A stretch of DNA of 61,488 nucleotides. Source: a virus (lineage: Duplodnaviria > Heunggongvirae > Uroviricota > Caudoviricetes). Under the pieces are notes generated by a model that was not told where the DNA came from, ran no database searches, and saw only the letters and a program-made list of their open reading frames with translations. The DNA lies in IMG/VR virus record IMGVR_UViG_2908567220_000003; one strand, given 5' to 3'. Shown in pieces: positions 56,027 to 57,505 of the stretch. A program made the position numbers and the translations under genes. The first letter of the stretch is position 1. Every line of letters begins with the position of its first letter.

Positions 56027-56182
56027 ATGGATACTATCGATCTTGGCAACAGCGAATCTCTGGTATGTGGCGTGTTCCCCAACCAGGACGGTACGTTCAC
56101 CGCGATGACGTATACCAAAAGCAAAACGTTTAAAACCGAAAATGGTGCCCGTCGCTGGCTGGAAAGAAACTCAGGTGAGTGA
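56027..56182 (+). CDS. YdfA-like small protein
   Basis: ATG at 56027 with GAGG RBS inside track ORF 55946..56182. Confidence 0.5.
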   Translation: MDTIDLGNSESLVCGVFPNQDGTFTAMTYTKSKTFKTENGARRWLERNSGE

Positions 56183-56183
56183 T

Positions 56184-56312
56184 ATGGATTTTGACACAAT
56201 CATGGAAAAGGCTTACGAAGAATACTTCGAAGGCCTTGCCGAAGGCGAAGAAGCTCACAGCTTCAACGAATTTAAACAGGTGCTTTCCAGTTCGGCAAAA
56301 TCTAACGGCTGA
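56184..56312 (+). CDS. YdfB-like small protein
   Basis: 42-aa ORF MDFDTIMEKAYEEYFEGLAEGEE; under ORF-track size cutoff. Confidence 0.4.
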   Translation: MDFDTIMEKAYEEYFEGLAEGEEAHSFNEFKQVLSSSAKSNG

Positions 56313-56341
56313 TAAGCGAAACAGCACCGCGAGGAATCAGT

Positions 56342-56560
56342 ATGCAGAAACGAGAACCCGTCATCATCGCGCCAGACTATACCGATGATGAACTTTATGA
56401 GTGGATGCGCCAGAAAATTAATGCAGCGCAGGATCTGAAATGGGCTAATGAAGCCAGGGTTAAGCAGGCTGAAAATCTGTCCGCTCTGGAGCAGGATATC
56501 ACCAATCTGGAAAAAGCAGCGGCATTAAGCATTGCCAGAATGATTACATACCCGCGTTAA
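56342..56560 (+). CDS. YdfC-like protein
   Basis: 72-aa ORF, ATG verified. Confidence 0.5.
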   Translation: MQKREPVIIAPDYTDDELYEWMRQKINAAQDLKWANEARVKQAENLSALEQDITNLEKAAALSIARMITYPR

Positions 56561-56901
56561 TAGATAACCAACGAAGCTAAGGTTGGTAATTAAGGAGTTC
56601 TCCACGGGTGAGGTGGAGTGCGTGCGCCGGACACGGGTGAGCATCCGGCACTGACAGTTTACTGAAAGGATATTTCCCTGAAAAGTCAGACCATAACGCG
56701 AAAGCGCACGGCGAGGTAGCTGGTTCATAGATAGCCTGTCGTTAAATTTTCGTCGACCGTGCGCTTCCGGTTGTGGCAATCCGCGAAATGGCGCGGCGGT
56801 AAGTATGGCGGGGTTATTCCTTCCCCCGTTGAGGACACCGGGTTGTCAGGTTGACCATACGCTTAAGTGACAACCCCACTGCAACGCCCTCTGTTATCAA
56901 T

Positions 56902-56954
56902 TTTCTGGTGACGTTTGGCGGTATCAGTTTTACTCCGTGACTGCTCTGCCGCCC
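56902..56954 (+). ncRNA. dicF: DicF small RNA (cell-division inhibitor sRNA)
   Basis: 53 nt TTTCTGGTGACGTTTGGCGGTATCAGTTTTACTCCGTGACTGCTCTGCCGCCC followed by T5, upstream of dicB; matches remembered DicF. Confidence 0.65.
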
Positions 56955-57128
56955 TTTTTAAAGTGAATTTTGTGATGCGGTGAATGCGGCTAAGCGCACG
57001 CGGAACAGTTAAAACCAAAAACAGTGTTATGGTTGGATTCTCTGTATCCGGCGTTAATTGTTAACTGGTTAACGTCACCTGGAGGCACCAGGCACCGCAT
57101 CACAAAACTCATTGTTGAGGGCGCGATA

Positions 57129-57317
57129 ATGAAAACGTTATTACCAAACGTTAATACGTCTGAAGGTTGTTTTGAAATTGGTGTCACTATCAGTAACCCT
57201 GTATTTACTGAAGATGCCATTAACAAGAGAAAACACGAACGGGAGCTATTAAATAAAATATGCATTCTTTCAATGTTGGCCCGTTTACGTCCGATACAAA
57301 AAGGATGCTGGCAATGA
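57129..57317 (+). CDS. dicB: cell division inhibitor DicB
   Basis: 62-aa ORF MKTLLPNVNTSEGCFEIGVTISNPVFTEDAINKRK inside track ORF 57024..57317. Confidence 0.8.
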   Translation: MKTLLPNVNTSEGCFEIGVTISNPVFTEDAINKRKHERELLNKICILSMLARLRPIQKGCWQ

Positions 57318-57505
57318 ATACAGCATTTGCACTTGTTCTGACAGTTTTTCTTGTTTCCGGAGAGCCAGTTGATATTGCAGTCAGTGTTCACAGGACAATG
57401 CAGGAGTGTATGACTGCAGCAACCGAACAGAAAATTCCCGGTAACTGTTACCCGGTCGATAAAGTTATTCACCAGGATAATATCGAAATCCCGGCAGGTC
57501 TTTAA
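57314..57505 (+). CDS. ydfD: YdfD-like lysis protein
   Basis: ATG at 57314 overlaps dicB stop (ATGA); MNTAFALVLTVFLVSGEP. Confidence 0.6.
   Translation: MNTAFALVLTVFLVSGEPVDIAVSVHRTMQECMTAATEQKIPGNCYPVDKVIHQDNIEIPAGL

Follow-up and report, generated by a model that had tools for sequence, protein, structure and literature searches.

In this study a 61,488-nt stretch of viral DNA (IMG/VR record IMGVR_UViG_2908567220_000003, Caudoviricetes) was analysed; it is called the window below, and the word always refers to its full length. The subject is a dicBF module on the plus strand, in which ydfA, ydfB, ydfC, dicF, dicB and ydfD follow one another downstream of a repressor gene, together with a leader RNA that precedes ydfA (Table 1). 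A preliminary description of the window had proposed a Qin-like operon for the inhibition of cell division, with a 53-nt stretch matching DicF. It placed the operon at 56027-57505, exactly from the start of ydfA to the stop codon of ydfD, and the upstream genes ydfABC were indeed found on the plus strand in the order known from Escherichia coli K-12.

The small RNA (sRNA) DicF has been shown to repress ftsZ, xylR, and pykA, with its 5' end pairing with xylR and its 3' part with ftsZ and pykA (PMC5069750). An Rfam scan of the whole window at gathering thresholds detected RF00039 (DicF) at 56903-56954 on the plus strand (76.7 bits against a threshold of 48; E 3.5e-15), and the match covered the full model (1-52 of 52). 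Alignment with the dicF/dicB locus of K-12 was colinear, and dicF of strain W3110 was identical to window positions 56903-56955 at 53 of 53 nucleotides, so that the proposed segment has proved to be DicF itself. As a consequence of this identity, every residue with a published role in pairing (PMC5069750) is kept. The RNA lies between ydfC and dicB, and its 3' end consists of a GGCGG...CCGCC stem followed by CTTTTT (56917-56959).

The five protein-coding genes are intact; YdfA, YdfB, YdfC, DicB, and YdfD differ from their K-12 counterparts at 2, 3, 1, 6, and 2 residues, respectively. No model in Pfam or NCBIfam matched YdfB. DicB was matched over its full length (residues 1-62 of 62) by both Pfam PF05358 (126.9 bits, cutoff 27) and NCBIfam NF049927 (131.8 bits, cutoff 100), with the substitutions Q36H, V47L, L55P, M56I, P57Q, and A61W relative to K-12. 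The overlapping ydfD-like gene described after dicB is also present: an ATGA read at 57314-57317 combines the stop codon of dicB with the start codon of ydfD.

Table 1. Features of the early-left region of the window (aa, amino acids; ORF, open reading frame; HTH, helix-turn-helix)
Feature	Coordinates	Strand	Evidence and remarks
cro/dicC-like gene, 96-aa ORF	54762-55052	-	Pfam P22_Cro 56.9 bits (cutoff 30.2); weak NCBIfam DicC match
Candidate operator, 18-bp palindrome TGTTTTAAAATTAAAACA	55079-55096		cro-cI intergenic region
CI-like repressor, 212 aa, HTH and S24 peptidase	55096-55734	+	Peptidase_S24 48.3 bits vs 23.3
Candidate operator TGTTTTGATAAAAAAACA	55801-55818		Abuts promoter -35 (TTGACC at 55819)
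Predicted pL-type sigma-70 promoter, TTGACC-17-TAAACT	55819-55847	+	Promoter scan; predicted start near A55854
Conserved structured leader RNA (very probable), ~95 nt	55860-55953	+	Covariation; covariance model R1
ydfA (DUF1391), 51 aa	56027-56182	+	Pfam 96.2 bits; 49/51 identical to K-12
ydfB, 42 aa	56184-56312	+	39/42 identical to K-12 YdfB
ydfC, 72 aa	56342-56560	+	71/72 identical to K-12 YdfC
Untranslated structured spacer, DicF precursor	56561-56902	+	About 97-99% identical to K-12
dicF sRNA	56903-56955	+	Rfam RF00039; includes intrinsic terminator hairpin, T-run 56955-56959
Structured dicF-dicB spacer domain	56966-57106	+	Closed by 12-bp perfect helix 56971-56982/57093-57104 in minimum-energy fold
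dicB, 62 aa, cell-division inhibitor	57129-57317	+	Pfam DicB (PF05358), NCBIfam NF049927; 56/62 identical to K-12
ydfD (DUF1482), 63 aa	57314-57505	+	Pfam 92 bits; 61/63 identical to K-12 YdfD
Exonuclease, 823 aa, intact	57599-60070	+	Rv2179c-like 3'-5' exonuclease domain 226.5 bits
xis	60123-60401	+	Exc 23 bits
int	60370-61488	+	Lambda-type Arm-binding and Phage_integrase domains

A CI-like repressor gene and a probable early-left operon

The repressor had been described as different from that of Qin, and this is the case: in place of DicA the window encodes a CI-like protein with an HTH and an S24 (LexA-like) peptidase domain. Its N-terminal HTH_3 domain scored 20.8 bits, slightly below the Pfam cutoff of 23, and its N-terminus resembles DicA over residues 1-71 only (E 1.5e-9; 37.7 bits, cutoff 101). 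The full protein aligns with the lambda CI structure 3bdn (E 2e-9). The serine of its SDSMS motif aligns with the catalytic S149 of lambda, and the lysine of VIRKLE falls at or beside K192 (FTFKKL), the register being ambiguous by one residue. In a single pairwise alignment, the Ala111-Gly112 cleavage site of lambda (QA/GM) falls on QA/AS (QQAASW), that is, on Ala-Ala. The repressor gene is divergent from P22_Cro/DicC-like, YdaT-like, and O-like genes; the likely start codon of the cro-like gene is ATG 55004, since the Pfam match begins at residue 18 of the ORF. The pattern TGTTTT-N6-AAAACA has just two exact matches in the 61-kb window, one on each side of the repressor gene, and the repressor may bind both.

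Genes for an exonuclease, an excisionase (xis), and an integrase (int) follow ydfD and are all co-oriented with the predicted promoter. The operon thus runs on into these genes, and the dicF terminator lies between them and the promoter. We are almost certain that the window holds an intact dicBF-type operon, which lies next to the promoter within the early-left (pL-equivalent) operon of a lambdoid prophage. By transfer from K-12 Qin, in a lysogen the CI-like repressor would bind the palindromes and keep the promoter off. Upon derepression, a single polycistronic RNA would start upstream of ydfA; DicF, together with Hfq, would then pair with the ftsZ, xylR, and pykA mRNAs, and RNA reading through the dicF terminator would give rise to DicB, with a MinC-mediated block of division, and to the lysis protein YdfD.

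In K-12, the counterpart of the spacer between ydfC and dicF carries RNase III and RNase E processing sites, and the two enzymes produce DicF species of 190 and 53 nt (PMC10448788). The 3' end of the 53-nt species is the intrinsic terminator, and a 72-nt form results from RNase III cutting of read-through RNA (PMC5069750). In the window, the region 56561-57128 folds with -219 kcal/mol, compared to -184 +/- 7 for shuffled sequences (z -4.95). The expected 3' end of a 72-nt DicF is at 56974, within the 12-bp helix that closes the dicF-dicB spacer domain; judging from the predicted fold, this helix is probably the RNase III site that yields the 72-nt form on read-through RNA. The same domain (56966-57106) gave a sub-threshold match to STnc100 (RF02076; 38.6 bits against a gathering threshold of 47, E 2.8e-7, model positions 21-154 of 206). 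It shares the CACCNGGAGGCACCNGGCACC hairpin and the enclosing helix with STnc100, but has no counterpart of the terminator at the 3' end of the model.

Several points weigh against a working operon of this kind. DicB is changed at 6 of its 62 residues, mostly toward the C-terminus. The predicted scissile bond of the repressor is Ala-Ala instead of Ala-Gly, and its SOS inducibility is therefore not assured. The promoter, start site, operators, and processing sites given here are predictions or transfers from K-12. Finally, two identical 2705-bp elements of the IS66 family (34294-36998 and 47689-50393, both on the plus strand, with HTH transposase, TnpB_IS66, and DDE_Tnp_IS66 ORFs) interrupt the prophage elsewhere, which may therefore not be fully functional. 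Each has short flanking duplications of its own (about TATTTTTCG and about GAAAGTGCG), indicating two independent insertions.

These insertions, as well as the location of the K-12 operon in a defective prophage, would also suit a silent fossil, i.e., a module in a decaying prophage remnant that is neither expressed nor functional. We consider this very improbable, given that all five reading frames are intact with few substitutions, that dicF is 100% identical to K-12, that the promoter, the repressor, the exonuclease, xis, and int are intact, and that the module is also found in phages recovered as particles or induced. Even less probable is that the window represents the Qin prophage of another strain: in its favor, 55989-57600 is 97-99% identical to K-12 Qin, but homology ends 38 nt before the ydfA start codon, a 212-aa CI/S24 repressor stands in place of the 135-aa DicA, the exonuclease is intact instead of truncated by IS2, and the integrase gene of the closest phage record abuts potC/potD, whereas intQ of K-12 abuts rspB.

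The 1.9-kb region around the module matched 4768 of 5426 complete E. coli genomes, with at least 80% coverage in 2293 of them, and occurs at a median of 2 and a maximum of 10 places per genome. Across many E. coli strains, dicBF has been reported to persist in a variety of prophages, O157:H7 having several copies (PMC5069750). Because at least parts of the module are present in most E. coli genomes and in phages, and has been described from different prophages, it is, by its sequence, the already known dicBF module within a mosaic lambdoid prophage.

Some features outside the operon were also observed. Genes for tRNA-Met(CAT) and tRNA-Arg(TCT) are located at 45008-45258 on the minus strand, just 3' of a gene for a 273-aa Q antiterminator (45402-46223, minus strand). 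An arrangement of this type precedes stx in Stx phages. Identity with such a phage was considered and rejected: no ORFs of stxA or stxB size follow the tRNA genes, and the ORFs at that position are smaller (106-177 aa). A full copy of STnc100 (132 bits, 44120-44309, minus strand) is found in the late region, just 3' of the two tRNA genes. A match to the Rfam sok family (106.7 bits, 50966-51137, minus strand) indicates a toxin-antitoxin locus of the hok/sok type in the prophage; at the corresponding position, phage 813R8 has an annotated "host killer protein".

A conserved leader RNA

Between the predicted promoter and ydfA, the transcript would begin with an element that is, on the evidence of covariation, very probably a real conserved structured RNA. 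It contains three helices, P1 (55862-55866/55914-55918), P2 (55870-55873/55907-55910), and P3 (55878-55884/55900-55906), and an invariant apical loop of 15 nt, CAATACTTCGAGTTA (55885-55899; family consensus CAAKACNNNGAGUUA). The helices are followed by an invariant 3' block (55919-55953), YAAGUAGCCAGCCYGAGGCNNANGAACAUGAMGGC, which holds GAGG-N9-ATG with the ATG at 55946. An outer stem, P0, was recognized by eye and closes the leader; its register varies among lineages, and it was left out of the pair counts.

RNAalifold, applied to a plain MAFFT alignment of 33 diverse leader copies, returned merely one 3-bp hairpin. As the helices were misaligned in that alignment, we turned to two others. 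The first (A4) comprises 29 sequences in an ungapped MAFFT alignment of same-length copies that was not fitted to any structure. In A4, 77.8% of cells were paired, compared to 63.6% in shuffles (0 of 500 shuffles reached the observed value); changes on both sides were found in 17 of 18 pairs, and the covariation score was 0.399, whereas shuffles gave 0.149 and slid registers did not exceed 0.142. The second (A6) is a model-based alignment of 39 distinct sequences that adds the Arsenophonus group. With A6, which is biased to the structure by construction and contains the sequences from which the structure was derived, 90.1% of cells were paired (69.9% in shuffles, at most 45% in slid registers), and compensatory changes were seen at all 18 pairs of P1-P3. 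The covariance model R1 scored 103 bits on the window leader, which is one of its seed members, and, on copies outside the seed, 48-67 bits in Arsenophonus and Phlomobacter and 38 bits (E 1e-8) in phage Kaonashi. A small GGCU/AGCC hairpin that appeared in some single-sequence folds was rejected; it is not kept in Symbiopectobacterium and competes with the covarying P1. An Rfam scan of 55700-57600 with E up to 5 gave no match over the leader.

The 146-nt core of the leader was found in 3752 of the 5426 E. coli genomes, at up to 7 places per genome, and no annotation covered it in the rows inspected. One of these copies is in the Rac prophage of K-12 (L176 2001-2134), between racR and a 44-aa gene that precedes ydaF. 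Pattern scans also detected the leader in 120 viral contigs and in genomes of Arsenophonus, Phlomobacter, Serratia, Symbiopectobacterium, Pectobacterium, Winslowiella, Superficieibacter, Escherichia, and Shigella; the loci compared include L129-L175. A diverged copy (L128 1479-1576) occurs in the T7-like Serratia phage Kaonashi, where it follows an early promoter within a non-coding early region of 1.2 kb.

In every lineage inspected, the leader follows an HTH repressor gene in the same orientation, and a cro-like gene diverges from that repressor gene. A near-consensus predicted promoter with lineage-specific palindromes stands immediately before the leader in the 17 copies compared, which come from 7 genera, and in every lineage the leader begins about 10 nt or less from the predicted start site. 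The first gene downstream varies by lineage and may be ydfA, an ECs_2282-like gene, a 44-aa gene, or none. In a prophage of Pectobacterium zantedeschiae, a 63-aa ORF (L148 6592-6783), YdfD/DUF1482-like by eye, stands directly after the leader, with no dicF or dicB between them. The family appears to be undescribed: literature searches, which are weak evidence with most papers in subscription journals outside their reach, returned no description of this RNA.

Initiation of a small conserved protein at the invariant ATG was considered and rejected because the ORFs range from 6 to 78 aa and share only M-(T/K)-A among the 17 copies. In the window, this ATG (55946) opens a reading frame in frame with ydfA (55946-56182, plus strand), making a 78-aa form of YdfA possible, and such a form is annotated in phage Tritos. 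K-12 is unable to make it, as its upstream sequence differs.

Possible functions of the leader

Read-through into the distal genes probably needs help, since these genes lie past the dicF terminator and an untranslated stretch of about 570 nt, and there is no local N-like gene. No N-like gene was found in the only part of the window screened for one, which runs from the repressor gene to ydfA. In K-12 Qin, which has no such leader, it has been observed that the main transcript ends at dicF and that a longer one reaches ydfD, while none extending to ydfE was detected (PMC10448788). It has been shown that the put RNAs of phage HK022 are cis-acting antiterminators made of two stem-loops at the 5' end of the pL transcript (PMC9378689). 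By analogy, the leader might be a cis-acting RNA antiterminator of a second class, unrelated to put, although we hold this only tentatively. In that case, the leader would enable the RNA polymerase of the host to continue beyond the dicF terminator and the long untranslated spacers and so reach dicB, ydfD, the exonuclease, xis, and int. Such a function fits the 5'-terminal position of the leader, its occurrence in both lambdoid and T7-like early operons, and its invariant single-stranded segments.

The antiterminator step has evidence against it as well. The 181-nt leader of the window is no more stable than shuffled sequences (z +1.25); it was retained as a structured RNA because covariation overruled this thermodynamic test. 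Membership in the put family was rejected: BLAST found no similarity to the HK022 pL region, and R1 had no match in the HK022 records L006 and L007 (best E >2), so that the leader resembles neither in sequence nor by model the only known RNA antiterminator of this type. No copy of the leader in a rightward operon, which would be the analogue of putR, was found in the window or at the 39 loci.

About equally possible, and equally uncertain, is that the leader is not an autonomous antiterminator and acts as a 5'-terminal stabilizer, an element for RNase processing, or a nut-like site for a phage or host protein. Hairpins at the 5' terminus are known to protect E. coli mRNAs, and the position of the leader so close to the predicted 5' end in every lineage would suit such a function; the invariance of the apical loop is as expected of a protein site. 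Against this, the first downstream genes differ between lineages, leaving the leader with no conserved adjacent partner protein, and its roughly 50 invariant nucleotides exceed what simple protection of an end requires.

A translational or ligand-sensing (riboswitch-like) device for the first reading frame is somewhat less likely than either of these. The 17 copies, from 7 genera, all keep the Shine-Dalgarno-like GAGG and the AUG. Aptamers typically have covarying stems around long single-stranded segments that do not vary, as here, and part of the invariant 3' block is able to pair in a small hairpin. However, the frames opened by the AUG share no more than their first residues, Met-(Thr/Lys)-Ala, the Kaonashi copy has no AUG, and no ligand or Rfam riboswitch class matches.

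With respect to the module itself, the window provides one more intact copy of a much-studied system, and its value is that of annotation. The leader RNA adjoining the module is the single item that merits follow-up; it occurs in about 70% of complete E. coli genomes, K-12 Rac included. If the leader governs read-through, this would explain how lambdoid prophages whose pL operon does not open with an N-like gene express toxic early-left genes (dicB, kilR) as well as xis and int, and the proposal could be tested directly in K-12.

Comparison with known systems

The gene set and order are shared with K-12 Qin, in which ydfABC-dicF-dicB-ydfDE is controlled by DicA/DicC. Both have the same DicF, their proteins share 90-99% identity, and in each the module directly follows the repressor gene in the same orientation. 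The two sequences are colinear from 55989, about 97-99% identical through the ydfC-dicF and dicF-dicB spacers, and homologous as far as 57600; upstream of 55989, they are unrelated. The name Qin-like is therefore appropriate for 55989-57600 and does not extend to the promoter, operators, leader, and repressor, which are of another type. The 135-aa DicA has no peptidase domain, in contrast to the CI/S24 repressor of the window; control of the Qin type (DicA/DicC with the dicBp promoter and operators) is absent here, the promoter region being non-homologous to K-12; and K-12 Qin has no leader of about 95 nt. In K-12, ydfE is truncated by IS2, whereas the exonuclease, xis, and int are all intact in the window. 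We thus see dicBF next to the promoter of a complete pL-type operon (exonuclease, xis, int) under a CI/S24 repressor, an ancestral setting at which the truncated K-12 Qin merely hints.

E. coli phages and prophages with dicBF modules include PPompW. Phage Tritos has ydfABC-dicF-dicB-ydfD-exonuclease with the same leader and an annotated dicF; its repressor differs (140 aa). The phages vB_EcoS-813R8 and 640R1 have the repressor, the leader, and dicF-dicB-ydfD-exo-xis-int in common with the window (98.6% identity). Both carry another gene where the window has ydfA-ydfB; in vB_EcoS-813R8, the closest phage, this is a 118-aa gene (L002 5033-5389), and a mosaic joint was observed: the repressor, promoter, and leader are 100% identical over 282 nt, and the sequences are shared again from ydfC onward. 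In E. coli genomes with an 813R8-like layout, the gene at the ydfA-ydfB position is named as an ECs_2282-family zinc-binding protein.

The put RNAs of HK022 (PMC9378689) and, by its predicted position, the leader are both structured RNAs (about 70-100 nt) that head the pL transcript of a lambdoid phage whose operon does not open with an N-like gene. The leader differs in consisting of one long three-part hairpin with an invariant tail and in occurring as a leftward copy only. Put RNAs act in cis, binding RNA polymerase and so carrying it past terminators; in this respect the analogy of the leader is one of position, with a terminator further along the transcript.

In lambda, whose pL operon has N and nutL, the map runs from the repressor gene through OL/pL, the early-left genes, and the recombination genes to xis and int. 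The window has no N-like gene between the repressor gene and ydfA, and its first transcribed element is a structured RNA rather than boxA/boxB. The operon described here nevertheless occupies the same map position as that of lambda, and terminators likewise have to be passed to reach xis and int.

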